In this document: one piece after another, positions 4,168 through 63,928 of the stretch
Layout: each line of letters opens with the position of its first letter
Position numbering within the stretch: the stretch's first letter is position 1
Origin: a virus
Lineage: Duplodnaviria > Heunggongvirae > Uroviricota > Caudoviricetes
Virus record (IMG/VR): IMGVR_UViG_3300037225_000328
Span: 45,793 to 109,792 of that record
Reading direction: 5' to 3' (one strand)
DNA length: 64,000 bases
Made by a program: the position numbers and the translations under genes
Notes under the pieces: generated by a model
Seen by the model: the letters and a program-made list of their open reading frames with translations, nothing else
Told to the model about the DNA's origin: nothing
Databases searched by the model: none

Positions 4168-4578
4168 TCAGTCGTTCGATGAACTGGCATCTTCATTCTC
4201 CAATTCTGCAAGAAGGGCATCTATATCAATAGGCCCCCAAGTCTTTTTCCAGTAATCCTTCCAATTAGGCCCCTTAAAAAGTTTCTCATATTCATCTTCT
4301 GTGGCGGCAGTTAGAAGCCATATTCCTGTTCCATATTTATCTAAAATAGGAAACTTAATCCGTTGTGCTTTAGTGAAAGTATACTCTCCAGGATTTTTTA
4401 CTTCCAACCAACGCTGACCCCACTTTGGATGGGTAATGTATAAATCGGGCAGCCCGAACTGCCATCCGATCCCTACAATTCTTTCCACATGCCAACCACG
4501 CTCCCGAAGAAAGCAACATATCTCCTTCTGGATTCCATACTCTGGTCCGTGGGCTTTACGAATCTTTGGTCGGTTCAT
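4168..4578 (-). CDS. VRR-NUC domain nuclease (PD-(D/E)XK)
   Basis: GLPDLYITH ... WLEVKNPG ... TKAQRIKF fits the VRR-NUC D...E.K pattern. Confidence 0.55.
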   Translation of the reverse strand: MNRPKIRKAHGPEYGIQKEICCFLRERGWHVERIVGIGWQFGLPDLYITHPKWGQRWLEVKNPGEYTFTKAQRIKFPILDKYGTGIWLLTAATEDEYEKLFKGPNWKDYWKKTWGPIDIDALLAELENEDASSSND

Positions 4579-4754
4579 GAAGATACCGGTACTTCTACTC
4601 CCTCAATTCGTACTAGCAACTTGCTTAAATCATCTCGGGTTTTTGTACGATACTCTGGAATACCCCAGTGGTGAGCTAGAGCCATTAATTGGGGAAGCGT
4701 TAAATTCGCTAACCAACCCTGTCGTTCTTCTATCGTTAGTGCCATAATAGTCTC

Positions 4755-5249
4755 CTATTTGTAATGATGAGCCGTTGTAACATCCCATCTTGTAGGTAGT
4801 TTATCTAAAATTTCAATATGTTGACGATCTCCTAATCCAACAGCCTTATAAAATGGACCCCATAATTGTTTATTTTCCCCGCTTCTCAGTATTGCACACC
4901 GATACGATAAGCAAACAGGACTTCTATACTTCCAAGGTAATCTGCAATCCCCATTCCAAAATCCATTAGTTTCGTCAAAAAGATTTAAAATAACATCAAA
5001 TGCCTCATTTGGTATTGCCTTCAAATAACCAAGACAACCAGCACACCCTAAACAACAACCACGTCGATCTGAACCTATCTTCTTCGTACACCCGTAACTC
5101 TCAAACCGGCAGCCAAAATCAATTTCAGAACACCGCTCAGCAATAAATTTCCATTCATCCCAGGTATATGAACCTTGCTTATCTCCAATCATTCGTTTAA
5201 AAATAGCTTCCCGATCTTTAAACGAATATTTTTTGAGCAGTGGAAACAA
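4755..5249 (-). CDS. cysteine-rich hypothetical protein
   Basis: Multiple CxxC-like clusters (GCCLGCAGCLGY, FGCRFESYGC). Confidence 0.4.
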   Translation of the reverse strand: MFPLLKKYSFKDREAIFKRMIGDKQGSYTWDEWKFIAERCSEIDFGCRFESYGCTKKIGSDRRGCCLGCAGCLGYLKAIPNEAFDVILNLFDETNGFWNGDCRLPWKYRSPVCLSYRCAILRSGENKQLWGPFYKAVGLGDRQHIEILDKLPTRWDVTTAHHYK

Positions 5250-5303
5250 TAGTCATCTTCATCTAACCAGATGTAACGACCTAATTTTTCACAGCCTTTA
5301 CAC

Positions 5304-6909: not shown

Positions 6910-7394
6910 TCATTGCGCCCCACACCCAATATTTTCGTCAGGGTGAATTTTTTCTTGTGTTTTATGAAACCAATCAATTACATCAAGCAAATAATCCTGC
7001 CCTGTTTCTAACGCTCTTTTCTTACAAAGATCGACATCGGTATCTACAATCATGACATACCGCCGCCAGTCAACATCCGGTGAAGGCGTAAACATATCCC
7101 TATGCTTACGATTCAAACCAGTCGAATCTAAAATCACTGTCTTGTTTTCAGCCCAAAACAATGCCCGAATCATTGTGCGAGTTGTCGCCCAAACCTCATG
7201 TTCAATCGGCCCCCACCATCGACGGCCGGTGTAACATAGACGCAATGCGTCTGGAGAAACAATGGATATTTTTGTTGACAGGCCCATGTAGATTTGCCCG
7301 AACGAGGTAATCCAACCATCATGATTAGTCGGTTGCCTGTACATGTCAATCCGTCATATTGTGTTGTATCAATATCTCGATTATCAGTAATCAT
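6910..7394 (-). pseudogene. P-loop polynucleotide kinase (AAA_33/zeta-like), split by a -1 frameshift at an A5 run
   Basis: ORF 7170..7394 carries Walker A (MMVGLPRSGKSTWA). ORF 6910..7344, in the -1 frame, continues with ISIVSPDALRL...VILDSTGLNRKHRDMF. The frames meet at the minus-strand A5 run (plus coordinates 7269-7273). One extra A would give a continuous kinase. Confidence 0.6.
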
Positions 7395-7395
7395 A

Positions 7396-9798
7396 TTACC
7401 TCTTGTATGTAATGTGAACTAATTCGGAACTTGATTTCTTTTCCGCCCAATTTGCCATATTCAACATCCATTTCATTCCAATCAATGGGACTTGTTCCCG
7501 ATACGATTCAACGGCTTCGGTAACTACATCAGCCACTTGTTTAATAAAATTTGGATGAGTTACGCACATAATTTCATCATGCACATTAATTGGAGCAACC
7601 ACAAAGGGATTAACTCCATACGGTTGTAAATTCCAAATCTTCCGTTGTACTCGTTTAGTTATTTCAGCCCCAGGCGATTGAATTAAGTGATTATTGGCAG
7701 CCCTCATATCAGCAGCTTGAATCTGAAACGCAGCCCCATAAAGAGCACTGCTTACTGCCCCACCCACAGTTTGAATGCGATCTCGACGTACACATTTAAT
7801 TGGGCATTGCTTCCATAATTTTGGAGTATTTGAGGCCAGGTTAAATAGTGCTTTACAAATCTTATTCTCTAATGTAAAGTATCGTCGAAACCCCAGAAAT
7901 GTTTCTACATAGTCATCTGGATCATTCCACACAACTTGTGTACCGATACCACCGGGCTGACGCATTGAACAAAAGCTATCATAAATCCGCATACGGGCTT
8001 CCCCGATACCAGGATATTTGGAAACCCACCGACCGTATGCCGCCTCGGCTACTTTTAATGGTATACCTAGCTTCTGATTCCAGGTATTATAATCACCACC
8101 ATAAAAGAATCCAAACACCCCTTGCTTGCCTTTAGTATACATATCAAGAATCTTGCTACCATCAGAGGCAACTACTTCTTCATAAGTATGCCCTGGAAAT
8201 AACTCGACCCCCAATAAAGCGTGAATCTTTTTACCATCCAATAGTGTTTGATGAAGGGCCGGATCTTTAAATACCGCATCAGCTAATGTTACCTCGAATG
8301 AATCAAAGTCACCGCCACAAAGAACATAACCTGGCCAAGTCAATGGAAACATCTTTCTCACAACCTTAGCGTGAGAAATTCCCTGAGCATTCAAACCATC
8401 ACCGCCTGACATTCGTGATGATAGTGTGCCAATTACTTTGAAGCTAGCATGAAACCTACCGGCTTTTAACAGTTTTTTATACAGTTCAATTTCTTTATTC
8501 GCAATTTTAATTTCTAAAAGTTCTTGGGCACGTTTTGATGCTGGATGCTGACCTATTTGCAAAGCCCCTTTACCGCCGCATCGAAGACAGGGATTGCCTT
8601 TATCATCTGTTCCTGATGTTCCACATCTATCGCATGGTTCTTCTTTTTCAATATACCAATTTGCTCCATCTCGTATTTGTTCAAGATTTGCTTTTTTAGT
8701 TGATTCCTCCAAAAGCATAGCTTCCATATCATTCATACAAACTGTAATATAATGACGAACAGCCGGTGGTTTATTAATATTGATTGGAGAATTATCAACA
8801 ATCTTCTGAGCCCCTGTCATCAACTCTTCAATTCCTTCACGATCTATTGTGAAACCGTGCCAACGAACAGCGGCAACCATGTGTGCAAGAGTTGAATCAT
8901 CATCGCCTAATTCAGGACAACCAAAATGCTCATATAATTTGCGAGTATAAACAATATCATCACTCGCATACTCGCGGGCAGGTTCATTCGTTGCCCAATG
9001 TTCAATGTGTTTTGCAATCACACCGGGCCATGCAAATCCTATCGGCTCACCTTCATTATCATAAGCATCCCATAATGGGGGTTTTGCAACCGCTAACGCT
9101 GTCGGGGCATACCCTAATTCTGCGGGTCGATATTCACTTCCTAATTCAACATCCTTAAAATAATGTTTAGGTTTTAAGTTAAGTGCATACTCAGCAAGAT
9201 ATTTCAAACCGCCAGCCGCGTGAAATTTTAAGACAACATCTTTAAAGTCTTTATTAATTGCCCCTGTTTTCTTGCTAACAATATCCATCACCTTCCATCG
9301 AGGAGCCGACTTATCGACCGTTTTGGCGAAATAAATTCCATCAAGCTCAATAGTTTTTTCAAGATGCTCCGCAAGGGCCGGGGCAAGTGCGGCGGGTACT
9401 CGTCGTATTTTAATGTTCTCTCTTTCCATTAGTGATTGCATTGGACCTTTTCGAGAAATAAGCATAAGATCACAAGCGGCCACTGGTTTAATACAAGGGC
9501 CATCCATTCCATCTGCTTCACGCATTGCTATTTCATTAATGTGTTGTTCTGGAACCCAATCTCCTGGAAATAGTCGGAAGATCGTATACATCTTCGCTAA
9601 AAGAAACCAGTCGAAGGTGTTATTAAATCCAATATAATTATTCTCAGTAAATAATTCAATAAGTTTTAATGTTTCACTTATAGGTTGTCGCCAAGGCTCA
9701 TAAAGAATAATTGGTCCATCTTCAAGGGCATATTGAATCAACACTGCCATCGAGTGCAATCCGCAACTTTCACAATCAACAAAGATATTTTTAGACAT
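7396..9798 (-). CDS. family A DNA polymerase with N-terminal 3'-5' exonuclease
   Basis: Exo I FVDCES; motif A GGDFDSFEV; motif B KGKQGVFGFFYGG; motif C VHDEIMCV. Confidence 0.75.
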   Translation of the reverse strand: MSKNIFVDCESCGLHSMAVLIQYALEDGPIILYEPWRQPISETLKLIELFTENNYIGFNNTFDWFLLAKMYTIFRLFPGDWVPEQHINEIAMREADGMDGPCIKPVAACDLMLISRKGPMQSLMERENIKIRRVPAALAPALAEHLEKTIELDGIYFAKTVDKSAPRWKVMDIVSKKTGAINKDFKDVVLKFHAAGGLKYLAEYALNLKPKHYFKDVELGSEYRPAELGYAPTALAVAKPPLWDAYDNEGEPIGFAWPGVIAKHIEHWATNEPAREYASDDIVYTRKLYEHFGCPELGDDDSTLAHMVAAVRWHGFTIDREGIEELMTGAQKIVDNSPININKPPAVRHYITVCMNDMEAMLLEESTKKANLEQIRDGANWYIEKEEPCDRCGTSGTDDKGNPCLRCGGKGALQIGQHPASKRAQELLEIKIANKEIELYKKLLKAGRFHASFKVIGTLSSRMSGGDGLNAQGISHAKVVRKMFPLTWPGYVLCGGDFDSFEVTLADAVFKDPALHQTLLDGKKIHALLGVELFPGHTYEEVVASDGSKILDMYTKGKQGVFGFFYGGDYNTWNQKLGIPLKVAEAAYGRWVSKYPGIGEARMRIYDSFCSMRQPGGIGTQVVWNDPDDYVETFLGFRRYFTLENKICKALFNLASNTPKLWKQCPIKCVRRDRIQTVGGAVSSALYGAAFQIQAADMRAANNHLIQSPGAEITKRVQRKIWNLQPYGVNPFVVAPINVHDEIMCVTHPNFIKQVADVVTEAVESYREQVPLIGMKWMLNMANWAEKKSSSELVHITYKR

Positions 9799-11739: not shown

Positions 11740-12056
11740 GATGCACCATTTGGCCAAAATAGATGTCCACACAAACCGCCCAATACAAATGGGATAATTG
11801 GGTATGAACAAGCCCAAGTATAAAGCATTACACTAATCGAGGCATCTACCCCTCCGTTATTAATTGCAACAATATCGTACCCCGCCAATAAAGCAATTGT
11901 TGAAATAATCACATAGTATGTAAGATTTTTCCAATTCATAGTTCTACCTTCAACTGTTTTGATACAATGGCTCGCATATCTTTCAAATGTGCTTGGGTTG
12001 CAGCCAATGACCCAGCACTGCCCGCACCTTCTGTGGGACGAAGACCACATTGCCAT
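11736..12056 (-). CDS. membrane protein
   Basis: Two or three hydrophobic helices (YYVIISTIALLAGYDIVAI; IIPFVLGGLCGHLFW). Confidence 0.4.
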   Translation of the reverse strand: MAMWSSSHRRCGQCWVIGCNPSTFERYASHCIKTVEGRTMNWKNLTYYVIISTIALLAGYDIVAINNGGVDASISVMLYTWACSYPIIPFVLGGLCGHLFWPNGAS

Positions 12057-12304
12057 AGCATATCCATAAGATGCTGGGCATTATTACCAACTAAATTAAG
12101 AAGAGTCTTAGGTCGTGTTCCTTCTAAATATTGCTTCCAGATAATATCATCAGCATATAAAATTTCACCCGTGGGTAAATGCTTCCGAACAAGTAACCTT
12201 GTGTCATAATCCCATACGTCTTGAAAGGCTAAAACTTCAGTGTCACTTCGACATAGTTGCGATAATGCAATATCATTTGGCATCATATTGTTTCTCCAGA
12301 TCAT
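11936..12304 (-). CDS. hypothetical protein
   Basis: 122-aa ORF. Confidence 0.35.
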   Translation of the reverse strand: MIWRNNMMPNDIALSQLCRSDTEVLAFQDVWDYDTRLLVRKHLPTGEILYADDIIWKQYLEGTRPKTLLNLVGNNAQHLMDMLWQCGLRPTEGAGSAGSLAATQAHLKDMRAIVSKQLKVEL

Positions 12305-12519
12305 ATAATGTTTCCCCAGGACGTATATTCAAATCCCGCAACCACTAAGCAAAGTGATACTACAATCATCCGATAAAACTTCCGTGTAATAAAAAGGCAT
12401 ACATAAGAATGCCAGCTAAAACTAATGCCCCTAACATTATACCAACACCAACTAAAGCAACCCCTCCAAGAATAAATTTCCACATAATTTATACTCCGAA
12501 GTGAATTTCTCTGTGACAA
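12301..12519 (-). CDS. small Cys/Trp-rich membrane protein
   Basis: 72-aa hydrophobic ORF. Confidence 0.3.
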   Translation of the reverse strand: MSQRNSLRSINYVEIYSWRGCFSWCWYNVRGISFSWHSYVCLFITRKFYRMIVVSLCLVVAGFEYTSWGNII

Positions 12520-12922
12520 TTAGCACAAAGTAAATCACATTTATCAAGTTCTTTTTTTAGTTTTTTCCAATTTCTTCGTCTATTAGCCATTATTTCTTTT
12601 CTTTTTGGATCTCTATGATGAAATTCTAACGCTGCTAAACATTTATTATATCCACACTTTTTACATCCCCCCCCCCCCCGCCTTTGTATTGAATTGACTT
12701 TAATTTAATTTGTAAATAAAGATCATAATTACGGCATGATATACTACAATATAAAGCCCGAATATTTTTGGGTTGAAACCATTTCTTACAAGTTTTACAG
12801 CGTTTCTTTTTGTGTTTTACTTTTAATTTACTATTCCAATTCTTATAACTACATATTCGAGAACAAGTTTTATGATCCTTCCGTTTAGGTTTAAATGTTT
12901 GATGGCACCAAATACATCTCAT
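12489..12922 (-). pseudogene. zinc-ribbon HNH endonuclease interrupted by a G13 homopolymer (frameshifted or phase-variable)
   Basis: The track ORF 12635..12922 encodes a CxxC-rich N-terminus ending in GGGGGDV. The +1 frame after the G13 run (plus C13 at 12667-12679) reads GCKKCGYNKCLAALEFHHRDPKRKEIMANRRRNWKKLKKELDKCDLLCANCHREIHFGV*. This is a canonical HNH motif ending at 12489-12491. Confidence 0.6.
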
Positions 12923-14238
12923 TTAAGAGCCTCAATTTCTTCCATTAAATCAATCTTATAGCGTTGAGGCCCTTCTTTTTCATTCTCAGTTCTCAGTTTC
13001 ACTGGCAGTCTCCAAGTAATTCCATATTTAGGGTGGCAACCATGAAGTAATTGTGTTGGCTCTGAAAAACCAGAAAATGAATTATACGCATATGCATCTG
13101 TAGCAACCCACGTTCCATTTATAAGAAGTTCACCATCTAATTCACTTGTGGTTCCAGGTCTATGAAAATGTCCGCAACAATAATAACGAATACGAGTCCC
13201 GCCTTGAATACCCGATAAGGACATAATACGTTGCTGTTTGCGAGTTAAACCGTACCAGGGAATTCCCAAGGAACTTTTCACATCATCACCGTGAAATATA
13301 CAGAAGCCCACCCCGTTTATGTCAAGATTAATAGTCCATGAATCGGGTATAATAAAATTCACATTGTCAATATCTCGACAATAAAGCCGCGCAGTTTCCG
13401 CAATCAAATAATCCCAATTATCATGTGCGCCGTGATAGTCTTTCTTAATTGACCTGCGCCCATGATTACCTGGTACATAAACAATATTTACAGTTTCAAA
13501 ATAAGGTGATAAATCTCTAAACATTAAGGAATGAAGTTGTCCAATTGCTAAACAATTTTTAAAACAATTTCGGAAATAAGAACGTTCTGTATTTCCATGA
13601 ATCTCCCCACTAGTATGATCACCATATGCCAACACTGTAAGCACTGGAAATCGAAATGTTGGAGCTAAGGTCTGTTGAGTCCACTTCAAAACTGTATTTA
13701 CATACTGTTCGGCTCTTGCCATACTAATTTTAAAATCATGTGTCTCTAGTCCACCACATTCAATAGGACGAACAATCTGGTCATGATGTCCATCCGATAA
13801 ATGCATCACAAGATGTTCTTCAATCCGATCCTTCGGTTGCTCACCAATTTTTATCCACGGGGCTTTTGGTAAAGAGGTTAAAGGCTTGACGATGGTTTCC
13901 ATCTCGTCTACAACAGCCTTAAATAATCCATGTGTTTTTGTTATAGCCTTTAACTGGCGACGGGCTGAATTCCGTTCATCTGTTAAATGAACTACATCAG
14001 CCTCTAGTTCCATTATTTTTTCATTAGTTGGATCAAAAACAGGTAGAGGTTTATGTTGCCCACCTTGATGCTTTCGAGGCAATAAATCATCAGCGTCCCT
14101 ATGAACTCTTCCAGTTGCAATATCTGAAATTAAGGAGCGACTTACCCGAAATTTCTTAGCAATCTGAGGTTGCGTCAAAGTTCCTTCCAGCAACAATTCC
14201 TTAATATCACTTACTTTCTTCTGATTCAGTTTCATCAT
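12919..14238 (-). CDS. calcineurin-like metallophosphoesterase with N-terminal HTH
   Basis: Motifs GDHTSGEIHG, VPGNHG, HGDD, GHFH. N-terminal HTH QPQIAKKFRVSRSLISDIATGRV. Confidence 0.55.
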   Translation of the reverse strand: MMKLNQKKVSDIKELLLEGTLTQPQIAKKFRVSRSLISDIATGRVHRDADDLLPRKHQGGQHKPLPVFDPTNEKIMELEADVVHLTDERNSARRQLKAITKTHGLFKAVVDEMETIVKPLTSLPKAPWIKIGEQPKDRIEEHLVMHLSDGHHDQIVRPIECGGLETHDFKISMARAEQYVNTVLKWTQQTLAPTFRFPVLTVLAYGDHTSGEIHGNTERSYFRNCFKNCLAIGQLHSLMFRDLSPYFETVNIVYVPGNHGRRSIKKDYHGAHDNWDYLIAETARLYCRDIDNVNFIIPDSWTINLDINGVGFCIFHGDDVKSSLGIPWYGLTRKQQRIMSLSGIQGGTRIRYYCCGHFHRPGTTSELDGELLINGTWVATDAYAYNSFSGFSEPTQLLHGCHPKYGITWRLPVKLRTENEKEGPQRYKIDLMEEIEALK

Positions 14239-14439: not shown

Positions 14440-15510
14440 TTAATGGGAATCTGTCTTTCTTACAGCTAGATAATCAACTGATACCGCCTTGGCAATCAAT
14501 CGTCCGCCCATAATATCTGAATACTCTTCATGAAGCGGTGTAATTACAATACCTTCTCGACCTTTAAATGAAGAATTAACCTCATTTGAATCAACAACAG
14601 TTGTAGGACCATCAACAAGCTGGTCAACAAGTTCCGGGTAAAATGGTCCCACATATAGAACTGGAACTGTTGGAATACAAAACCGCTTACAAGCCGCTTC
14701 TACCTCTCCCCAGTTAATATAGTTACCATCTACTGCCACATCAAATACTCGATAACCACTCTGACCTTCAACTCCATAATCCATAAACTGAATCTTAGAG
14801 CCGTAGATTTCTCCAAATACAATAACATTTGGCCCATAATTTTCTGCAAAATACCAAAGCATCGCTTTCATGTCTTCTGTCAATGGGAGCCAATAAAGTG
14901 TTCGATTGCTATTGGTGTCAAATTCTTTCTTATTCGTTTTATGAGAACCACAAAAGTAATCACCACCAAGAAGCGCAACACGAGAATTCGTCCCGTGAAT
15001 TTTCTCAGTAACTCTTATAGGAGTCCCCGTCTTAAATGCCCCTTTGAATCGAGCATTTCGATAGTTTTCAATATCAGTATAGCAATGAAACCGTGGATCA
15101 CTCTTAACTTGATCCCCAGTTTTATTCCACCAAAGCGGTTCCTTTGGTTCATATTTTACCCCGTGAAATCGATCTGTTAGATCCGTCCCAGCAGGAATAT
15201 CCTGAAGTCCCAGTACAAACCCAAAAGAAGGAACTCCGCGCAAACGGGCGGCTGCCACTCGGCAGTGAGTCTTCCGGCCATCTCCTGGGTAGATTTCTGA
15301 TTTAAGATATTTATCCACGCCCAATTGAGCAGCTATTTCTTCCGGTATCAAAATATCCGGAGGAAAATATGCAACCACATCACCGGGCTTAAATTCACCC
15401 CGACCCACGATAGTTGTATATTCACCAATTGTTGCAATATCAAGACGATCCGCATTAGGATGTGGTTTTACTGCGTCAATCTGTACCGTTATAATACGAA
15501 CGTCACTCAT
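14440..15510 (-). CDS. RNA ligase, Rnl2-like
   Basis: Motif I EKIHGTN (T4 Rnl2-type lysine nucleotidyltransferase); motif IV REGIVITP. Confidence 0.6.
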   Translation of the reverse strand: MSDVRIITVQIDAVKPHPNADRLDIATIGEYTTIVGRGEFKPGDVVAYFPPDILIPEEIAAQLGVDKYLKSEIYPGDGRKTHCRVAAARLRGVPSFGFVLGLQDIPAGTDLTDRFHGVKYEPKEPLWWNKTGDQVKSDPRFHCYTDIENYRNARFKGAFKTGTPIRVTEKIHGTNSRVALLGGDYFCGSHKTNKKEFDTNSNRTLYWLPLTEDMKAMLWYFAENYGPNVIVFGEIYGSKIQFMDYGVEGQSGYRVFDVAVDGNYINWGEVEAACKRFCIPTVPVLYVGPFYPELVDQLVDGPTTVVDSNEVNSSFKGREGIVITPLHEEYSDIMGGRLIAKAVSVDYLAVRKTDSH

Positions 15511-56901: not shown

Positions 56902-62103
<5,202 letters not shown>

Positions 62104-62562: not shown

Positions 62563-63071
62563 TAAATAGGAGATATTTTATGTGGATCTTATTAACAAAA
62601 GGCCAAAAAACCTGGGTGGATGATATTGATAGTGATTTAGCTAATTATAAGTGGTATTATCATATTAATCACAAAGGTGGTACTGGTTATGCTGCAAGAA
62701 TGATTGGAGGCCGAAAACATAAAAAAGTTCTCTTTATGCACAATGTTATTGCTGACCGAATGGGATTAATACATTCACGTAAAGATACAATTGATCATAG
62801 AGATCGGAATAAATTAAATAATTCGCGCTCAAATCTTCAAATATCCAACTCATCGCTTCAGGAAGTTAATAAAGGTTTAACAAAACAAAATTCCACAGGC
62901 TATAAAGGAGTTTCTTTTCATACAGGGACTCAAAAATATCGGGCAGTGATTACGGTTAATGGAAAACAGATTCATATCGGCGAATTTAAAACTCCACAAG
63001 AAGCTGCATTAGCATATAATCTTAAAGCTCTTGAAATTTGGGGTCTTCGGGCTTGGTTAAATCTTATTTAA
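62553..63071 (+). CDS. HNH-AP2 homing endonuclease-like protein (copy 4)
   Basis: ILLTKGQKTWVDDIDSDLANYKWYY...IDHRDRNKLNNSRSNLQISNSS...AP2 domain. The likely true start is 62580. Convergent, with a 4-nt overlap to the minus-strand structural gene. Confidence 0.65.
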   Translation: MIYLNRRYFMWILLTKGQKTWVDDIDSDLANYKWYYHINHKGGTGYAARMIGGRKHKKVLFMHNVIADRMGLIHSRKDTIDHRDRNKLNNSRSNLQISNSSLQEVNKGLTKQNSTGYKGVSFHTGTQKYRAVITVNGKQIHIGEFKTPQEAALAYNLKALEIWGLRAWLNLI

Positions 63072-63928
63072 ATCTTTTTTCCCTTGCCCCTTATAGGTTT
63101 TTTCTTATCTTCTGACAAAGTAGTATCTTGCGCTGCTATTTTCTCTTCGCTTGCTGCTTGTCGATTAATAGCAAGATCCTTCAGTCCTCGCGCTGCCGCC
63201 CACTGTGGATTGGGAGTATTGGGATCTATGGGACTTGCAACTTGAGTTTTATGATTCAACTCCCCTTTGTTGACAACTGCTTTATTAGCAGGATCTTGGG
63301 CAGGGGGGGTGGGTTTATCGGGTTCTTTTGGAGTCTTTTCAGGTTCTTTTGGAAGTTTCTCAGGCTCTTTTAAAGACTCTGGGGGGTTTTCTGGTGAAGT
63401 TTGTCCATTTTGTCCTTGTGCAGCCCCTCCAAATCCCTGTGTTTGAGCCTGTGCAATACGTTGAATTCGTTGTTGATGGTCATCTCTAGCTTTTAGATAT
63501 TCATCGTCATCAAATCCTAGTGCAATTGATGCTTGTTGCTCACCGACTAGTCCGTTGATTGAAGCTTGAATAATGACATTGGGATCACTGGTTGTATAAC
63601 TAGCAGAGTCAATTTCTTTAAAAACTTCTTGAAGTTTGTCTGTTGGAACTCGTGATCCAAGAAGAGTCAATACCAAGTCTTTTGCTAATTCTTTTTTAGC
63701 CTGGCGACCCGGAACGGTAGCTAAAAGTGCTGATAAATCCTTGGCTTCAGCAATTCTATCAAGATTTTTAGTTAAATTATAGCGATCTGGGTATTTAACA
63801 TGAGCAATTCTTCGCTTTTTTATGTTTTTTTCTTCATAACAAGCCCAATAATCAGCAATTCTTCGTTCCGCAATCTCCAAAACAAAGCCAATATGAGCCA
63901 ATCCGGCCTCTAACCCTTGTCCAACCAT
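63068..63928 (-). CDS. structural protein, C-terminal part (possibly portal); the ORF continues past the window end
   Basis: The frame stays open to position 64000. The C-terminus is low-complexity (PEKLPKEPEKTPKEPDKPTPP). The gene lies at the head end of the morphogenesis module. Confidence 0.3.
   Translation of the reverse strand: MVGQGLEAGLAHIGFVLEIAERRIADYWACYEEKNIKKRRIAHVKYPDRYNLTKNLDRIAEAKDLSALLATVPGRQAKKELAKDLVLTLLGSRVPTDKLQEVFKEIDSASYTTSDPNVIIQASINGLVGEQQASIALGFDDDEYLKARDDHQQRIQRIAQAQTQGFGGAAQGQNGQTSPENPPESLKEPEKLPKEPEKTPKEPDKPTPPAQDPANKAVVNKGELNHKTQVASPIDPNTPNPQWAAARGLKDLAINRQAASEEKIAAQDTTLSEDKKKPIRGKGKKI

Follow-up and report, generated by a model that had tools for sequence, protein, structure and literature searches.

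The locus described here raises the question of what a long homopolymer is doing inside a phage gene, namely whether a run of 13 guanines in the middle of a predicted HNH endonuclease gene is a switch, a sign of gene decay, a site of programmed recoding or an error of sequencing and assembly. The window, by which we mean the whole analysed stretch of 64,000 nucleotides, is part of a tailed-phage genome with genes for a DNA polymerase, a helicase, a primase, a tape-measure protein, a major head protein, a collagen-like tail fibre, ParB and an RNA ligase; no tRNA genes were found in it. Among cultured phages, the region from 10 to 16 kb gave no megablast match and the fused protein discussed below no tblastn match, and the exonuclease encoded next to the tract has only distant relatives there, with less than 28% identity. 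The locus is read from the minus strand and consists of the following features, in the order of transcription.

12919..14238, minus strand: upstream neighbour, a metallophosphoesterase-type exonuclease of 438/439 aa (phrog_284 exonuclease, E=4e-36)
12922-12635, minus strand: ORF A, 95 aa, MRCIWCHQ...IQYKGGGGGDVKSVDIINV
12667..12679, minus strand: poly-G tract, the length-variable element, G13 on the coding strand and C13 on the plus strand
12665-12489, minus strand: HNH nuclease core, 58 codons followed by a stop codon (12489-12491), in frame -1 relative to ORF A, GGGGCKKCGYNKCLAALEFHHRDPKRKEIMANRRRNWKKLKKELDKCDLLCANCHREIHFGV
12366..12485, minus strand: downstream neighbour, a hydrophobic ORF of 39 aa which starts 3 nt past the HNH stop

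The tract occupies the position of a junction, Y-K-G-G-x-C, which is conserved in the HNH family. It is unique in the window, where all other runs of G or C are of 7 nt or less, and its length is far beyond chance, which predicts about 2e-4 runs of that length or longer if bases are independent and about 1e-3 in a first-order Markov model. Upstream of it, ORF A encodes two zinc-ribbon repeats of the form CxxC...CxxxC (C3/C6...C20/C24 and C42/C45...C59/C63), which are followed by a long helix, the glycine run, 10 out-of-frame codons and a stop. Downstream, the shifted frame encodes the motifs of an HNH core, that is a CKKC zinc knuckle, EFHH, N136, CANCH and REIH (CKKCGY..ALEFHHRDP..LLCANCHREIH). 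That C13 on the plus strand splits an HNH gene into a zinc-ribbon ORF and a downstream HNH core had been proposed in the first-pass annotation and was found to be so; the downstream frame, there labelled +1, is however -1. The accompanying statement that one extra G, or two fewer, would fuse the frames held when tract lengths from 2 to 20 were simulated, as fusion occurred at n=2, 5, 8, 11, 14, 17 and 20 and truncation at all other lengths. The repeat thus lies inside an ORF and is so placed that a change in its length shifts the reading frame, as is characteristic of contingency loci. With G14 the fusion is 144 aa long, and the G14 and G17 products come to 144-145 aa. Because the downstream frame has no ATG, GTG or TTG ahead of the catalytic residues, its first start being the M at 12590, the HNH half could be produced as a fusion only. 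The exact 95-aa protein of ORF A is recorded in JGI and Logan assemblies, and with G13 it is the expected product of what we call the OFF allele, so that the earlier assertion that the 95-aa ORF is not the real product was overstated. Gene callers report just a 95-aa hypothetical protein at this locus, which matters for the annotation of viral metagenomes.

Read across the junction, the G14 fusion matches phrog_2255 (HNH endonuclease) in one stretch covering residues 13-143 with E=7e-23, and besides this family four other HNH PHROGs, the E values of the PHROG matches including 7e-23, 1e-16 and 4e-13. A search of 5.8 billion proteins gave 1314 homologues, many of which are complete, with 149-172 aa in a single ORF and 43-53% identity; together with the match across the junction, these single ORFs bear out the interpretation of the locus as one split gene. 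All 20 invariant columns of a 21-sequence alignment are kept in the fused protein of the window, and 16 of these 20 lie downstream of the tract. The HNH motif residues H103/H104, N136 and H138 are invariant and H142 is nearly so, all being encoded in the downstream frame of the window, and the zinc-site cysteines C88, C91, C134 and C137 are likewise invariant columns, with the first CxxC pair directly after the tract. The catalytic His/Asn/His motif and the two CxxC pairs place the predicted fusion in the HNH (beta-beta-alpha-metal) superfamily, and the damage to the gene, as judged from the residues kept, is one of the reading frame alone.

Other profile and structure searches gave less. Pfam PF01844 passed marginally with the C-terminal 62 aa (21.5 bits, the cutoff being 21.4) and was without a match in the scan of the whole fused protein at E<=0.01, and an NCBIfam scan of the protein gave no match. 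The same holds for Pfam NinG (PF05766, the lambda NinG/Rap family), which did not match the fused protein at E<=0.01; three of the homologues (P0002, P0003 and P0011) carry a precomputed PF05766 match. A sequence search against solved structures returned nothing significant, the best match being one of 18 residues with McrA (E=0.5). The G17 form, modelled with confidence by AlphaFold2 (mean pLDDT of 89), has the glycine run in a loop between the helix 61-81 and the HNH zinc knuckle; the model may resemble solved HNH domains, a Foldseek comparison with the PDB giving nothing significant. In about 100 homologues the junction is rigid, Y-[KL]-G-G-x-C-x-x-C-G-Y, and a glycine run is present there in none of them. 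A tract of G5 would restore the canonical spacing exactly (YKGGGC, as in the homologue P0101), and longer in-frame tracts add 1-4 glycines. Since the tract sits in the modelled loop, in-frame changes of its length are plausibly tolerated by the protein. For the downstream frame dN/dS was not usable, as the nearest homologue is about 50% identical with saturated synonymous sites and the close copies are identical.

The exonuclease upstream is conserved across the phage group and served as the anchor for finding related loci; its 438-aa form is present in protein records, from which the 439-aa form is absent. The ATG of ORF A overlaps the exonuclease stop codon (ATGA). Promoter-like sites were found neither within the HNH gene nor within the 39-aa ORF, and no terminator-like sites were found between the 3' half of the exonuclease gene and the middle of the 39-aa ORF (12413-12396, minus strand), the nearest such sites lying within these two reading frames. 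A plus-strand gene, or a promoter or terminator signal, behind the tract was considered and rejected, as none accounts for it.

Relatives of the exonuclease with 49-70% identity occur on 40 IMG/VR contigs, and on no such contig does an HNH homologue lie within 6 kb. The exactly corresponding slot after the exonuclease is occupied by an intact 156-aa HNH homologue (49.7% identity) in L055 (JGI 3300037067, Ga0378408_0000111), a landfill phage contig of 175 kb whose exonuclease is 69.6% identical to that of the window; some of the relatives are of landfill-leachate origin. The first-pass reading depended on the downstream HNH frame being conserved in relatives, and in L055 it is, at the same genomic position. 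The L055 junction, AAA GGC GGT AAA TGT (KGGKC), is free of a tract, which on this comparison is a derived feature of the window's lineage. The G+C content of the HNH gene is 28-33% against 39-44% in its neighbours; for the copy in the window it is 28% without the tract, with 39-41% in the surrounding DNA. The gene is thus accessory, compositionally foreign and patchily distributed at one genomic position, being present in the window and L055 and absent within 6 kb of the exonuclease in the 40 IMG/VR relatives, a distribution as known for homing endonuclease genes. Because of these three properties its profile is that of a free-standing homing-type endonuclease, and it probably encodes a homing-type nuclease. 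Free-standing HNH homing endonucleases of phages are exemplified by the mob genes of T4. Like the phage HNH homing endonucleases (PHROG 2255/3106/1271), the gene in the window is small, has an N-terminal DNA-binding module and low G+C, and is tightly packed beside a conserved gene in a patchily occupied slot; unlike them, it is interrupted by a tract found in no homologue, and its homing and target cleavage are putative.

The slot itself varies beyond the HNH gene. At about 7250-8250 of the related loci L003-L042 a different gene follows the exonuclease in almost every relative, the unrelated contents including ParB, AAA-type kinase-like, small Cys-rich and acidic proteins and others, so that the slot is hypervariable in the accessory genes it holds. 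Where the window has only a 74-aa ORF between its RNA ligase and exonuclease genes, L055 has a T4 endonuclease VII-like gene (PF02945, 2153-2701), and mobile nuclease genes seem to accumulate in this replication module. In L005 (IMGVR_UViG_3300037067_017894, about 4430-5300), the RNA ligase gene contains about 290 additional codons, inserted in frame, with motifs of the LAGLIDADG type (LLGDGCL, FWYMDDGSL); the insertion resembles an intein carrying a homing endonuclease and is absent from the RNA ligase gene of the window (14440-15510). In L004 (IMGVR_UViG_3300037067_008629), near 5037, the RNA ligase homologue shifts frame between residues 141 and 142 beside a short C run (GATCCCCGATTC); either a frameshift or an error in the assembly of that contig may be behind this.

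Other assemblies of the same phage were recovered by exact-protein look-ups, and outside the tract they are 100% identical to the window over 0.9-6.3 kb. Their tract lengths, any single one of which, the 13 of the window included, may be in error by one nucleotide, and the resulting states are as follows.

Window and JGI contig of 109.8 kb with the same 95-aa protein (P0122): G13, OFF
Logan SRR11594358 (L002/L043): G13, OFF
ENA ERZ27254251 (L001), 920-bp contig named k141_...: G4, OFF
JGI 3300037088 (L051), 33.9-kb contig beginning 18 nt upstream of the tract: G4, OFF
JGI contig of 47.4 kb (P0121), whose end cuts the gene short at '...YKGGGGGGGC': G17, in frame (ON)
Logan SRR11568998 (L044), contig end GGC+G17, with a partner contig (L049) that begins exactly at ATGT: at least G17
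JGI 3300037089 (L045), contig stopping 8 nt before the tract: tract not spanned
Logan SRR23247747 (L047), contig beginning GGGG-ATGT inside the tract: at least G4

Tract length, which the first-pass annotation had proposed to compare in related copies, is thus not fixed but polymorphic among otherwise identical genomes (G4, G13, G17 and at least G17), as is typical of contingency loci, the independent observations numbering 3-5 as several of the assemblies are perhaps from the same or related samples or reads. Intermediate lengths of 5-12 were not seen among the assemblies. Five contigs are broken at or beside the tract; heterogeneity within samples is read from these breaks alone, and contigs may break as well where long runs of G are poorly sequenced. 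All contigs that span the whole gene are OFF, with G4 or G13, the sole ON allele is the partial G17 gene at a contig end, and a complete ON protein was not found in a collection of 15 billion proteins. Over the up to 6.3 kb compared, in at least five samples, the tract is the only variable site except for one mismatch in a further contig, L054. That assemblies break here also matters for the contiguity of viral metagenomes.

The L054 contig (ENA ERZ28655897, WOOD18-1_SAMN07125091) covers 12016-12554 of the window without reaching the tract, and its one mismatch in 539 bp is the sole substitution among the near-identical copies. Across runs submitted over several years, the phage population appears nearly clonal.

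Four explanations of this pattern can be set against each other. It could be thought to be technical, the true tract being G14 (or G11), the gene intact and G13 a consensus error from PCR or cluster slippage, since long homopolymers are the classic site of consensus errors of plus or minus one nucleotide and the five contig breaks show that the site is hard to assemble. We hold this to be very unlikely: G13 was reproduced by a second assembler (Logan), albeit possibly from the same reads, and G4, likewise out of frame, comes from a contig assembled with 141-mers. The lengths G4, G13 and G17 are 4-13 nt apart, which is far above the Illumina homopolymer error, and the flanks are invariant but for the one mismatch, all of which points to a real mutational hot spot. 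An artefact is accordingly an unlikely cause of the whole pattern and a possible cause of the exact value of 13. The initial choice offered for the tract, a slipped-strand switch or a sequencing error, can be narrowed to real length instability, which is favoured by the G4/G13/G17 alleles and the contig breaks; whether switching is adaptive is a separate matter, to which the low likelihood given further below applies. Programmed recoding, by which ribosomal -1 frameshifting or RNA-polymerase slippage would yield a little fusion protein beside abundant zinc-ribbon protein, we regard as very improbable. The shift needed is indeed -1, and the G run is formally slippery (X XXY YYZ) and Shine-Dalgarno-like. 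A DNA-binding ORF joined at a homopolymer to a catalytic domain in the -1 frame moreover parallels the IS3/IS1 transposases, and IS elements express OrfA and OrfAB via -1 frameshifting or transcriptional slippage. The likeness is however one of layout only, as a downstream stimulatory structure is lacking (the 141 nt at 12560-12700, minus strand, fold with -9.6 kcal/mol, more weakly than shuffled sequences, for which the mean is -13.5; z=+1.8), a search of Rfam gave no match, the split is not conserved, with about 100 homologues including L055 at the same position reading the junction in one frame, and tract length varies, G4 being unable to slip. It counts further against recoding that the documented cases of transcriptional slippage concern A/T runs for the most part.

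The explanation that we favour, and consider reasonably probable, is that the hypermutable poly-G run toggles the accessory HNH nuclease gene by replication slippage, with the copy in the window being OFF. A free-standing HNH gene in the phage replication module, for a protein with two zinc ribbons at the N-terminus, then a helix, and the HNH domain at the C-terminus, would have had the GG-x codons at its conserved YKGGxC junction expanded into a long poly-G run, whose instability most likely arises by slipped-strand mispairing during phage DNA replication. Changes that are not a multiple of 3 would then move the HNH domain reversibly in or out of frame, so that ON alleles (G14, G17) would give zinc ribbons plus HNH, a predicted nuclease of 144-145 aa with extra glycines in a surface loop, and the OFF allele of the window (G13) the 95-aa zinc-ribbon protein only, while G4 would be a short collapsed allele, locked OFF, with its stability presumed from its length. 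Neutral decay of a selfish homing-type gene, pseudogenised at an accidental unstable run with length noise and with G4 as the collapsed end state, shares the mutational instability with such switching and differs from it in selective meaning alone; we consider it possible, though rather unlikely. It would account for all measured lengths but the partial G17 being out of frame and for the whole-gene contigs being OFF, which, like the lack of lengths from 5 to 12 and the 9-nt difference between alleles that is large for stepwise slippage, counts against switching. G4 is also too short for ready reversion, the tract occurs in none of about 100 homologues, and an accessory, patchy gene of foreign composition is what is expected of homing genes cycling through invasion and decay. 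On the other hand, the 58-codon HNH frame has acquired no stop and lost no invariant residue, several samples retain a tract of 13-17 G and an in-frame G17 allele exists, all of which fit switching; as all copies are otherwise identical, the time elapsed is too short for decay to be seen either way. That toggling has been selected, the locus being a contingency locus which hedges bets on a costly nuclease, with the zinc-ribbon-HNH enzyme as its ON and the 95-aa zinc-ribbon DNA-binding module as its OFF product, appears doubtful to us and clearly less likely than decay. The ON enzyme would in that case home into HNH-less relatives during co-infection, or attack the DNA of the host or of competitors, and the OFF protein could act as an antagonist or immunity factor by occupying the target of the enzyme. 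With a selected locus of this kind, the OrfA/OrfAB logic of IS elements would have a heritable counterpart, and the locus would be the first case from a natural population of homopolymer phase variation controlling a phage nuclease. If switching is neutral, the locus is an ordinary snapshot of a decaying selfish nuclease gene.

Toggling by a homopolymer has counterparts in bacteria and phages. Neisseria, Haemophilus, Helicobacter and Campylobacter have phase-variable restriction-modification and other contingency genes with poly-G/C tracts, which like the tract in the window are G/C homopolymers in the ORF of a DNA-acting enzyme and there act as slipped-strand ON/OFF switches; these are many selected loci in cellular genomes, in contrast to a single locus in a phage window. 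Among phages, the Fletchervirus phages of Campylobacter have hypermutable poly-G tracts of 7-11 G in their receptor-binding genes, with a demonstrated effect on host range (Sorensen et al. 2021, Cell Rep 35:109214, as cited in PMC12633550). In both cases poly-G lies inside a phage coding gene and its length shifts the frame, which in Fletchervirus results in ON/OFF subpopulations, whereas the phage considered here is uncultured and known from sequence alone, its tract has 13-17 G (plus G4) and the gene concerned is a nuclease gene of DNA metabolism. Homopolymer contingency loci with reversible frameshifts by polymerase slippage have been reported, across all functional classes of genes, for T2/T4 (agt, rIIA) and many further phages (Gomez, Barrick & Waters 2025 preprint, PMC12633550). 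These loci are short, with runs from 6 nucleotides upwards, mostly of A/T, and with mutation rates measured in culture, while the tract in the window is much longer and the evidence for its instability is polymorphism between metagenomes. Poly-G tracts have also been noted in the BPP-1 methylase gene and a baseplate gene of PB1-like phages (PMC12633550).

Poly-G switching in phages is therefore already known, and new are the gene class, a free-standing HNH nuclease, and the unusual tract length of 13-17 G. In the literature, no precedent was found that links homing endonucleases or homing-type HNH genes to homopolymer frameshift tracts. Phage homopolymer contingency loci have been recognised only lately, in Campylobacter phage receptor-binding genes in 2021 and in T-even phages in the 2025 preprint, and the present locus would extend the idea to an uncultured environmental phage, to a tract of 13-17 G and to a free-standing HNH gene, with evidence from natural populations.

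Some further features of the window were observed. Its next-longest G runs, G7 at 63303-63309 and G6 at 63381-63386 (plus strand), lie inside a 286-aa minus-strand ORF (63068-63928) which is uninterrupted. Two pairs of ORFs, 17134-18990/18894-20123 and 35585-36130/35982-39338 (minus strand), overlap by about 100-150 nt, which may reflect mis-set starts, real overlaps or frameshifts. An ORF of 1733 aa (56902-62103, minus strand) contains many repeated stretches that match collagen-like tail-fibre PHROGs, with E down to 4e-124, and is probably behind the rise in G+C to 49-55% at 56-62 kb as compared with about 40% elsewhere.
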